From a virus: DNA of 41,199 bases. The stretch lies in the IMG/VR virus record IMGVR_UViG_3300027509_000006, positions 1-41,199 of that record, one strand, 5' to 3'. Position numbers and translations under genes: made by a program. Positions 27,112 to 32,708 of this stretch are shown piece by piece (the first letter of the stretch is position 1; each line of letters opens with the position of its first letter). A model generated the notes under the pieces. It searched no databases and was not told the DNA's origin. It was given only the letters and a program-made list of their open reading frames with translations.

Positions 27112-28143
27112 ATGACTCTACTATTCACCTCTACCGTCACAGAAACCAGAGAAACTAAGATCCAGGATACCAACTTCCTGGAGCACTATCCCAGCGTCAA
27201 TGGAAATATGAACTGGCTCAAGTTCAAGCCCTACATCAGACAAGCCAGTGATGACGTGATGGAATACATCTCAGCAGAATTCTATGATGTGCTCACAGCT
27301 GACACCAGTGAGACTGATGATGCAGGTATCACATCCCTGAAAGAGCGGATAAGATCCACGCTGCAAGATGCCATCGCCTATCTGTCCGTCTACAAGGCCA
27401 TGCCCTTTCTCAATATCGTCATAGCCGACATGGGAGTCCAGCAAGGCAGCAGCGAGAATGGCACCTCACAACCGACTAACCAGTGGAGGTACAAGAATAC
27501 CAGATGGTCTGCACTCATCCAGTACTATAATAAGCTGGACCAGCTGCTGGCACTGATGGAAGAAAACATCTCTGAGACCCTGCTGGATAAATTCAAAACC
27601 AGCAAAGCCTACACCGTTCACAATACCTTATTTTTCAAGCATACCGAGGTGCTGTCTCAGTACCTGGACATAGCCAATTCCAGAAGGACTTTCATCTCCA
27701 TGCTGCCACATCTCCGGAAAGCTCAGCGAGATCTCAGAGTCCTCCTCTGTCACCAGGCCTATGATGAACTACTGACCAAGCTCGACCAGGACGACAACTC
27801 AGATGAGTATGATCAGCTGATAGAACTCTCCAGGCATTATCTGGCGAATAGAGCGCTCTATCTAGGCATCCCACACCTCAGAGTTCTACTGGAAGGCAAT
27901 GGCATCCAGGTCGTCACACAGACCGACACCATGGACATCAAGAACCCAGCTAACGAGCAGATGGTCAAGGATCTCTTATTCAGAGCTGAGCAGGATGCAG
28001 CCTCTTATAAGTCTGATATCATCGGATTTCTCAGAGGTAACCTGGAGGTCTTTCTTGCTTATAAGGAGCATGGCTATGTGGAGGGTGAGAGCAGGACGGT
28101 GTTTGCGTCAGGTGATAAGGTGGGTGGAATATTATTATCTTAA
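27112..28143 (+). CDS. Hypothetical late protein (last gene of the + strand block)
   Basis: 343-aa ATG ORF with GC content like the phage core. No motif recognised. Confidence 0.6.
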   Translation: MTLLFTSTVTETRETKIQDTNFLEHYPSVNGNMNWLKFKPYIRQASDDVMEYISAEFYDVLTADTSETDDAGITSLKERIRSTLQDAIAYLSVYKAMPFLNIVIADMGVQQGSSENGTSQPTNQWRYKNTRWSALIQYYNKLDQLLALMEENISETLLDKFKTSKAYTVHNTLFFKHTEVLSQYLDIANSRRTFISMLPHLRKAQRDLRVLLCHQAYDELLTKLDQDDNSDEYDQLIELSRHYLANRALYLGIPHLRVLLEGNGIQVVTQTDTMDIKNPANEQMVKDLLFRAEQDAASYKSDIIGFLRGNLEVFLAYKEHGYVEGESRTVFASGDKVGGILLS

Positions 28144-28601
28144 TATCTACTTAATCTTTTAACAAAACTTTTCTTAGTAAGTGAATCTTTTCTTTTCTTT
28201 CTCTGGTGTTCTGGAGAAACAGATTCTAGCAGCTTCATTCTTTTGGTTTTTCTTACGTATAAACTTCTTTTTAGATATGCATCTGGTATGAATACCTCAA
28301 TTTTGTCGCTTTGTCTCTGTTTAATTTTCTTAAGTTCTTCCTTGATTAATTGTAGGCTCCTATCGTTTGTCAGCATTTCATTTAGATGCAAGGTTCGAAA
28401 GTGGTTTAATAGGTCTTCAAGATTTTCGAAGTATGCATTTATCATAACAATCGGTGAATCTTCAAAACTAACATGGTCTTCTATTGTTTCTATAAATGAC
28501 TCCTTGAACGGTGCATTTACAAGGTATGTTTTTTTATCTGGGTCCGAAAAAATTCCTTGAGAAACCTGTGGAATAAAACCAATTACCTTAAATAATTTCA
28601 T
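28140..28601 (-). CDS. Orphan protein with a strongly basic C-terminal tail
   Basis: 153 aa. Its start overlaps the upstream gene stop by 4 nt. The C-terminus is EHQRKKRKDSLTKKSFVKRLSRY. No family recognised. Confidence 0.6.
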   Translation of the reverse strand: MKLFKVIGFIPQVSQGIFSDPDKKTYLVNAPFKESFIETIEDHVSFEDSPIVMINAYFENLEDLLNHFRTLHLNEMLTNDRSLQLIKEELKKIKQRQSDKIEVFIPDAYLKRSLYVRKTKRMKLLESVSPEHQRKKRKDSLTKKSFVKRLSRY

Positions 28602-29425
28602 AATGTTGTCATTTCAATATTCAAATTGGAAATACTTCTTTTTATTGATCTCCATTGAAGAAGTAACATTTGATCATATTTGTCAGATACGGACTCTTTA
28701 ACATCCATTCTTTCTAACTCCTCAAACAATTTTTTTTTAATGGAGATACGTTCAAAATCCTCAGCTAGTATGTCAGAAAATATAAGAATCTCCAACCATC
28801 CTCTAGAGCTGTTTGAAATCAAATCATCCCAAATTCCAGGGTCTGGTTTTAAATCGAATTGATGTTTTATTGTCGCTAGACATTCTACACTACCCCAACT
28901 AGAAACATCTTCACTAAATCTCAAATCATCAAAGTCTAATTCGCTGTTCAGGTATATCAATGAAAATTGTTTCAAGCAGAAAAGATCTCCCAACTCACCG
29001 AAAGAATTAGTTAAAAGAATATTCACTCGTCCGCTGCCAAAACCAGGCCAGTTTAAACCCATGCCACCAGTATGTAAGGAAGCATACTTTAACACTTTAC
29101 CATCTTCAATAAGTTCTGCAAACGCTTCAAATTTGTCAAAGTAGGGAATCGAACCAGCATTGTAACGTTCTTTAATGGCATCTTTGCTATATCCTTGCTC
29201 AAATACATTCAAGTACTTCTTTTGTAGAAGAACACTGTTCAAAGCAGCAAGGTTCAAGTTAATACAGATACTTTTTTTTGATCTTACATACGTAAGAAAC
29301 TTGTCAAAAGACTTATCGGTTTCAGCAAGTTTCTCAATCTTGGTTTTTAAGTCAACATCATTGGAAAACGCCCAGTTATTTATCTCACCTTTCTGGACAG
29401 GCTTTGACGTTTTCATTTTATGCAT
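28598..29425 (-). CDS. Orphan protein, unknown function
   Basis: 275 aa, starting 41 nt downstream of the darG stop. It has a glycine-rich segment HTGGMGLNWPGFGSGRVNILL. No family recognised. Confidence 0.6.
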   Translation of the reverse strand: MHKMKTSKPVQKGEINNWAFSNDVDLKTKIEKLAETDKSFDKFLTYVRSKKSICINLNLAALNSVLLQKKYLNVFEQGYSKDAIKERYNAGSIPYFDKFEAFAELIEDGKVLKYASLHTGGMGLNWPGFGSGRVNILLTNSFGELGDLFCLKQFSLIYLNSELDFDDLRFSEDVSSWGSVECLATIKHQFDLKPDPGIWDDLISNSSRGWLEILIFSDILAEDFERISIKKKLFEELERMDVKESVSDKYDQMLLLQWRSIKRSISNLNIEMTTL

Positions 29426-29466
29426 AATTGATTCGTTTGGGAGTGGAAAAGGCGCAGAGTTAATAA

Positions 29467-30507
29467 TTATTTTAAAACTCTTTGTTTCTTTAAAGTTGGT
29501 GCGAGGCCTCCTAGTGACATCGTTATTAAACCAAGCTCAGTCATAGCCCTAATCGCCTGGTCAACATCTGATTTTTCAAAGGAGTTCTTCTTATGTTCTG
29601 ACCAATTTTGAAGGAGAATAAATAAGTCTTTGTCAGTACAGGGATAATTTTGCTCTAATAAAGTTAGGAGTGACGAAAGTAATTCCAGATTTTTATCCTC
29701 GGTAATCCTGTTGATTAAATTGGTTGACTGAATGATGGATGCATCAAATTTTTGAAGCTTATTCAAAACAGATTTACTAATGTTTGTGTTCAGAGCTAAA
29801 TCAAGTGCCTTCTCTGTACCAACGTTATAATAAGTCTGGTATTCTATAATTTGGCGACTAAGGATACTAATCGCATTTGAATAAGGACCGAAATGATAGT
29901 TTTGAAATTTGAAATAATTTTCTTTTGAAAAGTAGTTGAGAAAGAATCCCGATTTTTGAAGACGGACTTTGTTGAATTTAGATAACTTGGATTTAATTAT
30001 CATAAGAATTAAATGACTAGCATTCAATTTAGGCACTCTAGTAACTTGGTTTTTATTAACAACTGAGGAGGGTTCGAAAATTATTATATCAAGTTCATCA
30101 GCAAATTTCAAAACATAACTTACTATAATATCTTTAACGATATTCCATTCTAAACCTCCATTGCCACAACCAAGAGGAGGGATTGCTATAGAATTGATAT
30201 TTAGCTTAGGTAATTCTTCGACCAGAGCATTCATACCTGAATCAATGTATTCATATTTTGACTTTTCTCGCCATTTGTTTTTAGTTGGAACATTAATCAA
30301 AACCTTATCATTTTCTCTTGAAACTAGGACCTTGCCAATTCCAAAAGATCCATTCTTGCATGCTAAAACGTAGCTGTCGTTATTACTAGGAAATCTAGTT
30401 TTAAATTGATAGGCAATTCCCTTTCCCATGAATCCTTCGCAATTCACTGTATTTACCAAGGCGTCAGTCCCAGCCTCAAACATATTTCCAGTTGTTAGCT
30501 TTATCAT
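29467..30507 (-). CDS. darG: DarG-like macrodomain antitoxin (ADP-ribosylglycohydrolase)
   Basis: The N-terminal macrodomain motifs are GNMFEAGTDALVNTVNCEGFMGKGIAYQFKTRFP and IAIPPLGCGNGGLEW. An extra C-terminal domain of about 190 aa is present. The start overlaps the darT stop (ATGA). Confidence 0.8.
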   Translation of the reverse strand: MIKLTTGNMFEAGTDALVNTVNCEGFMGKGIAYQFKTRFPSNNDSYVLACKNGSFGIGKVLVSRENDKVLINVPTKNKWREKSKYEYIDSGMNALVEELPKLNINSIAIPPLGCGNGGLEWNIVKDIIVSYVLKFADELDIIIFEPSSVVNKNQVTRVPKLNASHLILMIIKSKLSKFNKVRLQKSGFFLNYFSKENYFKFQNYHFGPYSNAISILSRQIIEYQTYYNVGTEKALDLALNTNISKSVLNKLQKFDASIIQSTNLINRITEDKNLELLSSLLTLLEQNYPCTDKDLFILLQNWSEHKKNSFEKSDVDQAIRAMTELGLITMSLGGLAPTLKKQRVLK

Positions 30508-31082
30508 TTCTTGAACATAGCTGAATTACAATTAACATAAATTCCTGTTTTTCCTAGCTTAGTAAGCAAATCATCTATCCTTTGCTTATCAGTTCCATTC
30601 TTGCAGTAAATTGCATAAATATCGGTAGAAAACACCGTATTTTCACTCAAACATTCTGCCATACAGCAATTTTTACAGTCTTGATCGCAGTAATCTCTGA
30701 CTCCCATTAAATCCCAATCAATTAGTTCAATGCCCGTTTGAAAAGGATGTAATATGGGTGGGTTCAAAGATAATGGATGTTGCGTAAGAATTTTAAAGTT
30801 ATTTCGTTTTGCAAGTGTCCTTAGAATCGTTAAAAATACAAAAGTGAGACCTTTACAATCTTGCTGGACTTGTCCAGCAAATGGGGTTCCAGCAAAAAAA
30901 TGAAAAGGTACATATCCGTTTAAATTATGTTTCTTTCTGTGAGCGATTATTTTGTCATCTGCAACATCATGAAAGGCAGCGAGATTTCCTCTAGCACTTA
31001 GTCCTTCCTTCAGAATCTGCTCTAGATTATCAAATGCTGTTAAATGAAAAAGTAGCTTTAATTGTTTAGGATGTTTTCCCAT
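30504..31082 (-). CDS. darT: DarT-like DUF4433 DNA ADP-ribosyltransferase toxin
   Basis: 192 aa from ATG 31082. The motifs are LLFHLTAFDNLEQILKEGL, GYVPFHFF, LIDWDLM and CMAECLS (the family AEfLv glutamate motif). The track extension to 31238 overlaps the upstream gene and is rejected. Confidence 0.75.
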   Translation of the reverse strand: MGKHPKQLKLLFHLTAFDNLEQILKEGLSARGNLAAFHDVADDKIIAHRKKHNLNGYVPFHFFAGTPFAGQVQQDCKGLTFVFLTILRTLAKRNNFKILTQHPLSLNPPILHPFQTGIELIDWDLMGVRDYCDQDCKNCCMAECLSENTVFSTDIYAIYCKNGTDKQRIDDLLTKLGKTGIYVNCNSAMFKK

Positions 31083-31104
31083 CGTTATATTTTCAATGTT
31101 GTCC

Positions 31105-32484
31105 CTAATAACTCCCCACCCCCACCATATCCAGCAGCCGCTCATATTGCACGACTTCCACACTATTACGACCCAGTACCGCCTTGTCAGTCGGGAGTTT
31201 TCCACTCTCCAGGGAGCGGATATCCAACTTGTCACCAAGCTGACTGATGAAAGCGATACTGCGATCGTGTATGGGAGATCTAAGATATAATCGTGAGTAA
31301 TTCTTAAGATGTGCCAGTGCCACCTCAGCCTTTTTCAATTCTCCTTGCTGCTGATGATAGATCACCTTGCCTATGAGGAATGGTAGTGTGACATGAATGT
31401 TCTCTCGTGGTACTTTATTCAGATTGTAGTGTAATTTCTTGAGGCTGATTTTCTCACCCAGGCTGATGGCCATGTAGAGCGCATAGACTTGCATCCTGGT
31501 CTTATACGCTGGCTGGCCAGTCTTGTGCACATTCTTCTCTATCCATCGGAACAGCGGCAGTGCCTTGAGGTAATCACCTTGGTGGAGATAGATCTGGAAG
31601 AGCAGCTCGTTGTATCTGTAGACGTGCGACCCCTTAGTCTTCTGTTCTGAGAGAGCTGACAGTATGACCAGCTCGGCCTGAGCCAGATCACGGGCAGCTA
31701 TGTGGACGTCCAGAATATGGAAGGTGAAAATGTTGATTACCATGGAGTGCTGGTATGGAAGAGCTCTGAAATGTTCTATGGCACGATGACAAGTCTCTAT
31801 CTGTGATGGTTTATCGCCATCTATGTAGGCAAGGAAAAAACTGAACTCAAAGTGAATGAGCTGTAATCTTATACTATGCTCCAGATGCGGTTTCATATCG
31901 TGGATTACCCTTTGCATCTGTGTCCTGGATTCCTGAAAAGCTTGTGTGCCATACCTGGAACGGACTACAGCATAATCCCAGTCAAACTCAATTTCCTTAC
32001 GATACAGTTCCAGATGATTCAGAGCCATCTTGTGGAAGGACTCAGCCAGATGGCTCTCTTTTTTCAGGGCATACCTGTTGGAGATTTTTCTGCAAAGCTC
32101 CGCAGAGATATTGTGCATCTGGTAAGTGGTGCTGCGTCTCAGTAATCTTCTGGCTGCGGCTATGATAGCGGACGAAAACCCAAAAATAGACATCAGTGCG
32201 ATGGCTTGAAATTCACGGTGAATACTGGTTTTTTGCCTCTGGAGTGAGTTTCCTCCATCTATATGCGTGAGGGAAACGATAAGTTTGTCATAGAGATGCG
32301 ACTTGGTCTTGACAAAGGATCTTACACTAGGTGAGCTACCATACATCTGCTTAGACATCGCTTCATAAGATTGTCCTGAGGTCAGACCATCGGCTAGCTC
32401 TAGTTCTTTAGGTGTGAGATTATCAGTTCCTTTTTCTCCAAGGTACTTTGAGCAAATCTCAAGTAATTCTCTTACTGGTAGCAT
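31105..32484 (-). CDS. Regulator with an N-terminal LuxR/GerE-type HTH and a long TPR-like alpha-helical repeat domain
   Basis: 459 aa. Residues about 23-68, LTPKELELADGLTSGQSYEAMSKQMYGSSPSVRSFVKTKSHLYDKL, align to the GerE-type HTH consensus. A hydrophobic helix FQAIALMSIFGFSSAIIAAA follows. The remaining 330 aa or so are helical-repeat-like (for example YNELLFQIYLHQGDYLKALPLF). GC content matches the phage core. Confidence 0.6.
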   Translation of the reverse strand: MLPVRELLEICSKYLGEKGTDNLTPKELELADGLTSGQSYEAMSKQMYGSSPSVRSFVKTKSHLYDKLIVSLTHIDGGNSLQRQKTSIHREFQAIALMSIFGFSSAIIAAARRLLRRSTTYQMHNISAELCRKISNRYALKKESHLAESFHKMALNHLELYRKEIEFDWDYAVVRSRYGTQAFQESRTQMQRVIHDMKPHLEHSIRLQLIHFEFSFFLAYIDGDKPSQIETCHRAIEHFRALPYQHSMVINIFTFHILDVHIAARDLAQAELVILSALSEQKTKGSHVYRYNELLFQIYLHQGDYLKALPLFRWIEKNVHKTGQPAYKTRMQVYALYMAISLGEKISLKKLHYNLNKVPRENIHVTLPFLIGKVIYHQQQGELKKAEVALAHLKNYSRLYLRSPIHDRSIAFISQLGDKLDIRSLESGKLPTDKAVLGRNSVEVVQYERLLDMVGVGSY

Positions 32485-32663: not shown

Positions 32664-32670
32664 GAAACAA

Positions 32671-32708
32671 GCAGAGGTCCCAGTCACGAAGACCTCTGCC
32701 TTTTTATT
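32671..32708 (+). terminator. Rho-independent terminator, potentially bidirectional
   Basis: GCAGAGGTC (32671..32679) pairs with GACCTCTGC (32691..32699) across an 11-nt loop, followed by CTTTTTATTT. Read on the - strand it follows the cI-like stop but has a weaker T tract (TTGTTTCTT). Confidence 0.7.

Follow-up and report, generated by a model that had tools for sequence, protein, structure and literature searches.

What are the two small genes that directly follow the toxin and antitoxin genes darT and darG in an AT-rich block of a phage genome, components of an enlarged DarTG system or a system of their own? The question is raised by the IMG/VR virus record IMGVR_UViG_3300027509_000006, of which we analysed positions 1 to 41,199 (one strand; this whole stretch of 41,199 nucleotides (nt) is called the window in the following). 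The element it represents is siphovirus-like and temperate, and its host belongs to the Bacteroidota. A first reading, made from the letters and translations only (the sequence-only reading), had described the two genes as translationally coupled orphans that seemed to have been acquired together with darTG, and had left the choice between a four-gene DarTG system and an independent two-gene system. Here we report that the two genes, termed A and B, almost certainly form a conserved unit that is independent of DarTG, and that the protein encoded by A very probably has the fold of an ADP-ribosyltransferase (ART), as judged from its structural model. Based on sequence comparisons and this model, we see an even chance that A-B is an autonomous, horizontally mobile conflict module located beside DarTG and consisting of an ART and its partner, probably a toxin and its neutraliser.

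The two genes are arranged as follows:

28598..29425, minus strand: gene A, 275 amino acids (aa), ATG start; an open reading frame (ORF) with a protein family of its own and a predicted ART fold (AlphaFold2, Foldseek)
28140..28601, minus strand: gene B, 153 aa, ATG start; an ORF translationally coupled to the adjacent gene A, as indicated by the ATGA overlap

The overlap of A and B thus comprises 4 nt (ATGA). Re-examination of the window confirmed these coordinates and the overlap as well as the 41-nt gap between darG and A, the low GC content and the two motifs to which the sequence-only reading had drawn attention, i.e. HTGGMGLNWPGFGSGR in A and QRKKRKDSLTKKSFVKRLSRY, which is the C-terminal end of B.

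Profile libraries are silent on both proteins. Neither A nor B matches an entry of Pfam, NCBIfam, PADLOC or PHROGs (for B there is only PHROG noise at E>0.1), and none of 41 members of the A family matches Pfam-A (hmmscan, E<=0.1), NCBIfam or PADLOC. Likewise, a word-indexed search of 5.8 billion clusters with the single sequences of A and B returned nothing but the queries themselves. Only exhaustive HMMER searches, combined with structure prediction, showed that the supposed orphan belongs to a family and that its fold can be recognised. With A as query, phmmer, run exhaustively against 1.84 billion representatives, gave 52 hits at E<=1e-3, nearly all of them 260-290 aa in length and two of them evident repeat artefacts, and a profile search added 55 further clusters, all annotated as 'hypothetical' and none containing a Pfam domain. 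The family comprises ~90 members from at least eight phyla, with ~50 clusters at 50% identity among the 1.84 billion representatives, and the label 'orphan' therefore has to be dropped. Members derive from Acidobacteriota, Thermoanaerobaculia, Deltaproteobacteria, Methylococcaceae, Magnetococcales, Bipolaricaulota, Armatimonadota and Polyangia; one locus of the subfamily closest to the window lies on a Bacteroidota-type chromosome, and a scan of metagenomes of the Joint Genome Institute (JGI) contributed one additional A locus.

An alignment of 93 members of the A family, which have a median pairwise identity of 28%, reveals a small set of nearly unchanged positions. Y114 and E212 are invariant, i.e. 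present in 100% of the members, and N22, N56, N73, G123 and S155 are conserved in 99%; all seven residues are kept in the A protein of the window. Four elements of A are of particular interest:

29258..29260, minus strand: codon of N56 in the motif S-I-N (residues 52-57, first core strand), candidate for position 1 of the catalytic triad
29084..29086, minus strand: codon of Y114 in the motif K-Y-G-x-L-N (strand 113-118), candidate for the 'Y' position of ARTs
29027..29077, minus strand: Gly-rich loop L117-R133 (LHTGGMGLNWPGFGSGR), conserved, following the strand that carries Y114
28790..28792, minus strand: codon of E212 in the motif y-I-E-a (strand 212-215), candidate catalytic glutamate

The Gly-rich loop, already singled out by the sequence-only reading, is a conserved motif of the whole family, L-N-x-G-G-x-G, with L117 found in 95%, N118 in 90% (the window protein has a His here), G120 in 94% and G123 in 99% of the 93 members, and it may constitute the NAD-binding loop.

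The sequence-only reading had recognised no convincing Walker A, HEPN Rx4-6H, PD-(D/E)xK or nucleotidyltransferase motif. The structural model nevertheless points with confidence to a known catalytic fold for A. AlphaFold2, run with an alignment of 41 family members, produced a model of A with a predicted local distance difference test score (pLDDT) of 94.3 and a predicted template modelling (TM) score of 0.91. In a Foldseek search of the PDB the best 19 matches are all ARTs, representing at least six families, with probabilities of up to 1.0, and include SopF (E values 6.7e-6 and 2.2e-5), DarT from Thermus, M. tuberculosis and E. coli, OspC3, CopC, Tpt1 and CteC; matches after rank 19 are noise (E>3). 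The best solved match is SopF, an effector of the Salmonella type III secretion system (PDB 7DN8, 7DN9; TM score 0.44-0.50, probability 1.0). Foldseek against BFVD gave 18 matches at E<=1e-3, the best with E=4.6e-8 and a TM score of 0.59, among them a DUF3626 phage protein and proteins of baculoviruses and iridoviruses (ORF30/ORF32, IIV6 422L). According to the model, A thus very probably has the split β-sheet fold of the ART superfamily, of which it is a divergent representative, and SopF (DUF3626) and DarT are the solved structures that resemble it most in shape.

The BFVD matches also include A-like ART domains in large phage proteins, i.e. a 932-aa 'ParB-like N-terminal domain' protein of Bacillus phage CP-51, SP-15 proteins and a 'minor capsid protein', as well as in proteins of giant viruses, baculoviruses and iridoviruses. 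Iyer et al. related the ORF28 family of arthropod viruses to DarT (PMC9503650), a family to which ORF30/ORF32 and IIV6 422L may or may not belong. The structural matches point to a broad and poorly annotated assemblage of SopF/DarT-like ARTs in viruses.

ARTs employ catalytic triads of the H-Y-E or R-S-E type, or variants such as H-F-E, the residues of which are located on strands β1, β2 and β5. In A, three successive predicted core strands, 52-57, 113-118 and 212-215, carry N56, Y114 and E212, respectively, i.e. in the same order as in an ART triad. Given the conservation of these residues across the family, we regard catalytic activity of A as rather probable.

Gene B is the constant companion of A. 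A B-type gene directly follows A in each of the 27 distinct loci for which downstream sequence is available, in most cases overlapping with A or separated from it by a few nt only, and phmmer detected neither DarT nor DarG in any of the 26 loci other than the window. The sequence-only reading was right in treating the pair as a real coupled unit that shares the composition of darTG within one AT-rich block, and of the two options it had left, the independent two-gene system is the favoured one. B partners differ in length (125 aa to at least 344 aa), and all of them open with a common module of ~70 aa:

28383..28601, minus strand: N-terminal module of B, residues 1-~73, with the motif IGFxPQ..G...APF / L.A..P.DG.A...RPPY
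28143..28262, minus strand: basic tail at the C-terminus of B, comprising its last 40 aa and carrying a net charge of +12

The module is well supported by several comparisons. Six B proteins of the close subfamily, aligned by hhalign with a profile of the distant ~200-aa B proteins, match over residues 2-73 with a probability of 96.9% and E=1.9e-10, and the modules of the window and of locus L005 (loci are referred to by our own numbers where necessary) match in BLASTP with E=7e-12. A hidden Markov model (HMM) of the module recognises B in all loci with E values from 1e-21 to 1e-32, among them eight loci that had not been used for training (1e-22 to 1e-25), and also detects a truncated fragment of 67 aa.

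The remainder of B is variable. Tails with a charge of +11 to +12 are limited to the three shortest B proteins (window, L005 and L030), whereas the others carry different C-terminal regions. Thus, the basic tail emphasised by the sequence-only reading does recur, but is not family-wide; it is a feature of a subfamily. Between the window and L005, A is 41% identical, whereas B shows 25% identity over only 76 aa, i.e. B diverges faster than A. Faster divergence of the partner is common in toxin/neutraliser pairs. Moreover, A and B are two small, adjacent, co-directional, tightly coupled and strictly co-occurring genes, as is the case in type II-like toxin-antitoxin (TA) pairs. At one further locus (L010 259-2112, JGI Ga0114957_1042975), from a metagenome that also contains a copy of the window phage, a divergent A member with 33% identity is followed by a B partner of at least 344 aa, which keeps the N-terminal module (…VRYPY) and continues into a helix-rich C-terminal part that is long and unrelated.

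In 18 of the 27 loci B is followed by a third gene, C, that encodes a protein of 540-805 aa with an N-terminal MinD/ParA-like P-loop domain containing the motif YSYKGGxGR[ST]. C matches the NCBIfam family NF047398, 'KGGVGR-motif variant AAA ATPase', with ~150-160 bits (cut-off 90), and the PADLOC candidate PDC-M28B with E values of 3e-26 to 7e-30, the latter match being limited to the P-loop domain. According to Kaur et al., predicted-inactive MinD/ParA-like domains recur in prokaryotic conflict systems (PMC7159879). Two C proteins, both from Thermoanaerobaculia (L009 9473-11890 and L021 9445-11835), have a Peptidase_C25 domain (gingipain/caspase-like) at their C-terminus, which suggests that some three-gene versions may use a protease as effector or trigger. 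HMM searches found no C-like gene in the window, nor in those close-subfamily loci whose sequence extends far enough (L027, L030 and L033), and L039 and L017 lack C as well. In L030 (107-2206) the gene that precedes A by 125 nt, in the same orientation, encodes a 699-aa protein without a Pfam match that is not C-like by HMM.

Based on these findings we speculate that A would use NAD+ to ADP-ribosylate a macromolecule, either a nucleic acid or a protein, and that this modification would arrest the cell or the infecting phage. B, produced by translational coupling, would dock on A via its conserved ~70-aa N-terminal module and would most likely keep A inactive, as antitoxin or as regulator, while its variable C-terminus (strongly basic in the window) may help to adjust localisation, stability or contacts to nucleic acids. 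In most relatives C, a KGGVGR variant that is probably catalytically impaired, would probably add a layer of sensing or triggering; the subfamily of the window would function without it. In the lysogen, A-B would probably be expressed and serve as a second module of the ADP-ribosylation type, active in exclusion or abortive infection. The proposition that B neutralises or regulates A and that defence or abortive infection is the function of the module has, in our view, somewhat less than an even chance.

Several observations weigh against a conflict module composed of an active ART and its neutraliser. The candidate triad starts with an Asn instead of the canonical His or Arg, and its assignment to N56, Y114 and E212 is based on conservation and the order of the strands. 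The TM scores to ARTs, both for SopF and in BFVD, are moderate. At the sequence level, Pfam, NCBIfam and PADLOC provided no link between the 41 A members and any ART family, the profile search of the PDB with family A gave noise only, and hhalign comparisons of family A with DarT were not significant (E 0.74 with the DarT of the window alone, E=0.28 with an alignment of five DarT sequences); both of these runs align E212 with the glutamate motif mAEcL of DarT. B has no relative in Pfam or the PDB (the family profile search of the PDB found nothing), and its AlphaFold2 model from the single sequence is unusable (pLDDT 44). Neither A nor B is represented by a PADLOC model, and L027, L030 and L033 have ordinary chromosomal neighbours with no recognisable defence genes nearby. 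Finally, the window lacks C, unlike most relatives, so that its version of the module could work differently or be a remnant.

Some of these points would also suit a different role of A, namely that of a catalytically silent sensor or adaptor that has an ART fold and does no more than bind NAD+, ADP-ribose or ADP-ribosylated DNA; the actual effector would be B, by means of a basic tail that binds nucleic acids, or, in relatives, the ATPase/peptidase C. We consider this role unlikely. Asn at position 1 of the triad would be in line with a silent ART, but non-canonical triads are active in related ARTs, e.g. the H-F-E triad of CopC, which is among the nearest solved relatives of A (PMC9239266). 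A shows no sequence similarity to active ART families, yet its invariant Tyr and Glu, located on the expected strands, are the residues most important for ART catalysis. The caspase-like Peptidase_C25 domain in C of some relatives is a potential effector, but the window and its close subfamily do without C. Similarly, the net charge of +12 in the tail of B might hint at an effector role of B, but such tails are confined to three short B proteins.

ARTs are central weapons in the conflict between phages and bacteria (DarT, CmdT, Alt/Mod, AcrIF11), and A is located in a prophage. A might also be an offensive or counter-defence ART of the phage, comparable to Alt/ModA/ModB of T4 or to AcrIF11, and B its chaperone, specificity factor or inhibitor. 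Phage ARTs that act in host takeover or as anti-CRISPR proteins are known (PMC9503650, PMC12421852), and the ART-like domains of large phage proteins (CP-51, 'minor capsid protein') are among the best BFVD matches of A. Of the 27 distinct loci, however, 26 are found in cellular, non-phage contexts, and no relatives of A were detected in 50,697 GenBank phages (tblastn), in PLSDB plasmids or in IMG/VR (searched with the close-subfamily alignment). In the window itself the pair sits next to the defence TA genes darTG, on the strand of the repressor and outside the early and late operons. Thus, we regard an offensive phage ART as quite improbable.

The surroundings of A-B in cellular genomes are diverse. 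Upstream of the distant A loci there are unrelated housekeeping genes (ABC transporters, UvrA, MacB). In most genomes the GC content of the module is below that of its flanks (0.25 vs 0.37, 0.29 vs 0.39, 0.42 vs 0.57 and 0.46 vs 0.55). L039 is flanked by insertion sequence (IS) elements, L009 contains genes for HicB and a patatin, and L017 a gene for an NYN protein. Several A-B loci look like accessory or defence islands, and the neighbourhood analysis shows that the two genes co-occur, that they do so without darTG elsewhere, and that some of their loci are island-like. In L035 (14942-18863) a Gabija-like pair (a DUF2813/AAA_15/OLD-TOPRIM ATPase and a UvrD helicase) and a DDE transposase are found within 2 kb (<=2 kb) downstream of A-B-C, and a RecD2-like helicase and an FRG-domain gene upstream of the trio. 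In L037 (5299-18091) and in L038 an otherwise conserved cell-shape cluster is interrupted, between mreBCD and PBP2-rodA, by A-B-C accompanied by genes for a HicB-like antitoxin and an M48 peptidase, which is a clear example of insertion as accessory cargo.

If the window was the only locus known, A and B might readily be taken for accessory subunits of a four-gene DarTG, in which they would modulate DarT, sense infection or address a second target: A-B lies on the strand of darTG, 41 nt behind it and with no promoter or terminator in between, its composition and codon usage are indistinguishable from those of darTG, and DarTG variants with recruited components exist, e.g. DarHTG, which contains a helicase (PMC13069673). 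However, none of the other 26 A-B loci (0/26) contains DarT or DarG, and the closest annotated DarTG systems, which are located on Cytobacillus plasmids and have 40% identity to the DarT of the window, are plain two-gene systems without A-B, as are the examples from Klebsiella. Moreover, A-B has a recurrent third partner of its own, the KGGVGR ATPase, that is unrelated to DarTG. As A-B occurs in the 26 other loci without DarTG, we reject the four-gene system, which is very unlikely, and conclude that the island probably harbours two modules of the ADP-ribosylation type that are separate from each other. That the pair has an ordinary housekeeping function in phage or cell and no role in conflicts, as might be suggested by the exclusively metabolic or envelope genes near L027, L030 and L033, is scarcely credible in view of the very sparse and patchy spread of the family (~50 clusters over at least eight phyla), its variable and unrelated flanks, the insertions in conserved clusters and near IS elements, the GC content of the module below that of the flanks and the absence of any PHROG match.

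An ART with a coupled partner is a known scheme, and A-B, read as a toxin and its neutraliser, can be compared with several systems. SopF is the archetype of DUF3626, and both SopF and A are ART folds that were long missed by sequence-based annotation (PMC6682159). The likeness is purely structural: none of the 41 A members (0/41) matches Pfam DUF3626 (PF12294), and the sequence identity is 12-13%. Furthermore, SopF is secreted, targets eukaryotes and is activated by ARF GTPases, whereas A is cytoplasmic and has a dedicated bacterial partner gene. Like DarTG, A-B is mobile and begins with an ART-fold gene to which the next gene is tightly coupled, giving the same toxin-first order; DarTG is defence-associated and adjoins A-B in the window, and the DarT proteins of three species are among the top matches of A. 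Nevertheless, A does not match any DarT profile (PF14487, NF048013, PADLOC DarT), and the first motif residue is His in DarT (H-x-T) and Asn in A. As B contains no macrodomain, NADAR or ARH domain, any neutralisation would be achieved by binding and not by reversal of the modification.

A similar architecture, namely an ART toxin, a small, fast-evolving neutraliser and a third regulator, is found in CmdTAC/PD-T4-9, ParT-ParS and ART-antitoxin-SecB, the third gene being present in relatives of A-B. CmdTAC demonstrates that a module of this kind can be anti-phage (PMC11618068; PMC7159879). In contrast to ART-antitoxin-SecB, A-B lacks a SecB-like chaperone, and its third gene, which is absent from the window, is of the KGGVGR MinD/ParA-like type. 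PADLOC returned no match of any kind for A or B, the PD-T4-9 models in PADLOC 2.0 not having been verified. PDC-M28/NF047398 is shared with C of the 18 related loci, but A and B match no component of PDC-M28. In our literature search we found no publication on PDC-M28 or KGGVGR proteins, and no paper describing the A clade, the B domain or the association with KGGVGR ATPases. Thus, while ART toxins with cognate neutralisers, also in three-component form, are already known (DarTG, CmdTAC, ParST), the A clade and the B domain, neither of which is represented in Pfam, NCBIfam, PADLOC or PHROGs, and their association with KGGVGR ATPases appear to be new.

Going one step further, A-B(-C) may tentatively be proposed to constitute an undescribed ADP-ribosylation-based immune or abortive-infection family with a new ART clade of the N-Y-E type and a new neutraliser domain. 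Stacked with DarTG, it would allow the lysogen to deploy two ARTs against superinfecting phages, perhaps with different targets (DNA vs RNA or protein). If this proposal is true, an unannotated ART clade with an unusual variant of the catalytic centre and a new partner domain would be added to the known systems, and the three-gene version would link an ART with a variant MinD/ParA-like ATPase. With both ART modules side by side in a single cargo block, the prophage makes synergy, partitioning of targets and cross-neutralisation, e.g. a reversal of the product of A by the DarG macrodomain, testable.

The genes upstream of A and the block as a whole have the following coordinates:

29426..29466, minus strand: spacer of 41 nt between the stop of darG (29467) and the start of A (29425)
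29467..30507, minus strand: darG, macrodomain antitoxin (PADLOC, NCBIfam, Pfam Macro), outside the A-B module
30504..31082, minus strand: darT, DNA ADP-ribosyltransferase toxin, 192 aa (PADLOC, Pfam, motifs)
28140..31104, no strand assigned: AT-rich cargo block with the four genes darT-darG-A-B, delimited by composition and codon usage

By their sequences, the upstream neighbours are genuine DarT and DarG. DarG matches its PADLOC model with E=5.9e-90, Pfam Macro with E=4e-17 and NCBIfam antitoxin_DarG with 260.9 bits (cut-off 250). DarT matches PADLOC DarT with E=2.1e-30 and Pfam DarT with E=2e-15 and contains the motifs H-L-T, YVPF and MAEC. The mechanically derived darT ORF (30504-31238, minus strand) comprises 244 aa from a TTG and overlaps with the 3' end of the neighbouring 459-aa gene by 134 nt. 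As the Pfam and PADLOC matches begin at residues 53-64 of this ORF, the most likely start of darT is the ATG at 31082, giving 192 aa, and not the TTG at 31238; gene callers also choose the 192-aa start. The 41-nt spacer between darG and A contains no promoter or terminator consensus of note and is consistent with read-through transcription from darTG.

The element that carries the block encodes a tape measure protein, an integrase, a primase and a cI-like helix-turn-helix (HTH) protein. One copy of it lies inside a 133-kb contig and is thus integrated. Homologues of its head-tail adaptor in GenBank phages are found in phages of Flavobacterium, Polaribacter and Bacteroides only and are distant (~25% identity). 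The cargo block is located between the end of the plus-strand morphogenesis operon and the divergent region of the cI-like repressor and the early genes; it uses the strand of the repressor and lies outside the early and late operons. Its genes are distinguished by composition, with GC contents of 0.345 (darT), 0.333 (darG), 0.344 (A) and 0.314 (B) as compared to 0.459 for the 459-aa gene and 0.483 for the head-tail adaptor gene at the flanks. At third codon positions the GC content is 0.25-0.32 in the block vs 0.52-0.60 in the flanks. In codon usage darT, darG, A and B group together, apart from the core genes of the phage. The block is sharply bounded by GC steps at 28140 and 31104, each at most ~100 nt wide. 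No meaningful direct or inverted repeats were found at the island borders, and neither a tRNA nor an Rfam RNA at the island. Syntenic relatives were sought in view of the prophage defence hotspot that the sequence-only reading had suggested for this position: IMG/VR contains no syntenic relatives of the flanks (adaptor gene and 459-aa gene), and GenBank no syntenic related phages.

At its downstream end the block has no spare sequence: the stop of B (minus strand) and that of the head-tail adaptor gene (27112..28143, plus strand) are convergent and overlap by 4 nt at 28140-28143, with no terminator-like structure between the two genes. At the other end, the 459-aa gene (31105-32484, minus strand), which has the phage-like GC content mentioned above, lies directly upstream of darT with a gap of 22 nt. 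Apart from a weak MalT-like match to tetratricopeptide repeats (TPR; E 0.011), this gene has no homologue in the profile libraries or in IMG/VR. It is located downstream of the cI-like HTH gene and of a terminator-like hairpin (32669-32701), and its product could be a TPR-type regulator, the gene heading a transcript that also includes darTG-A-B.

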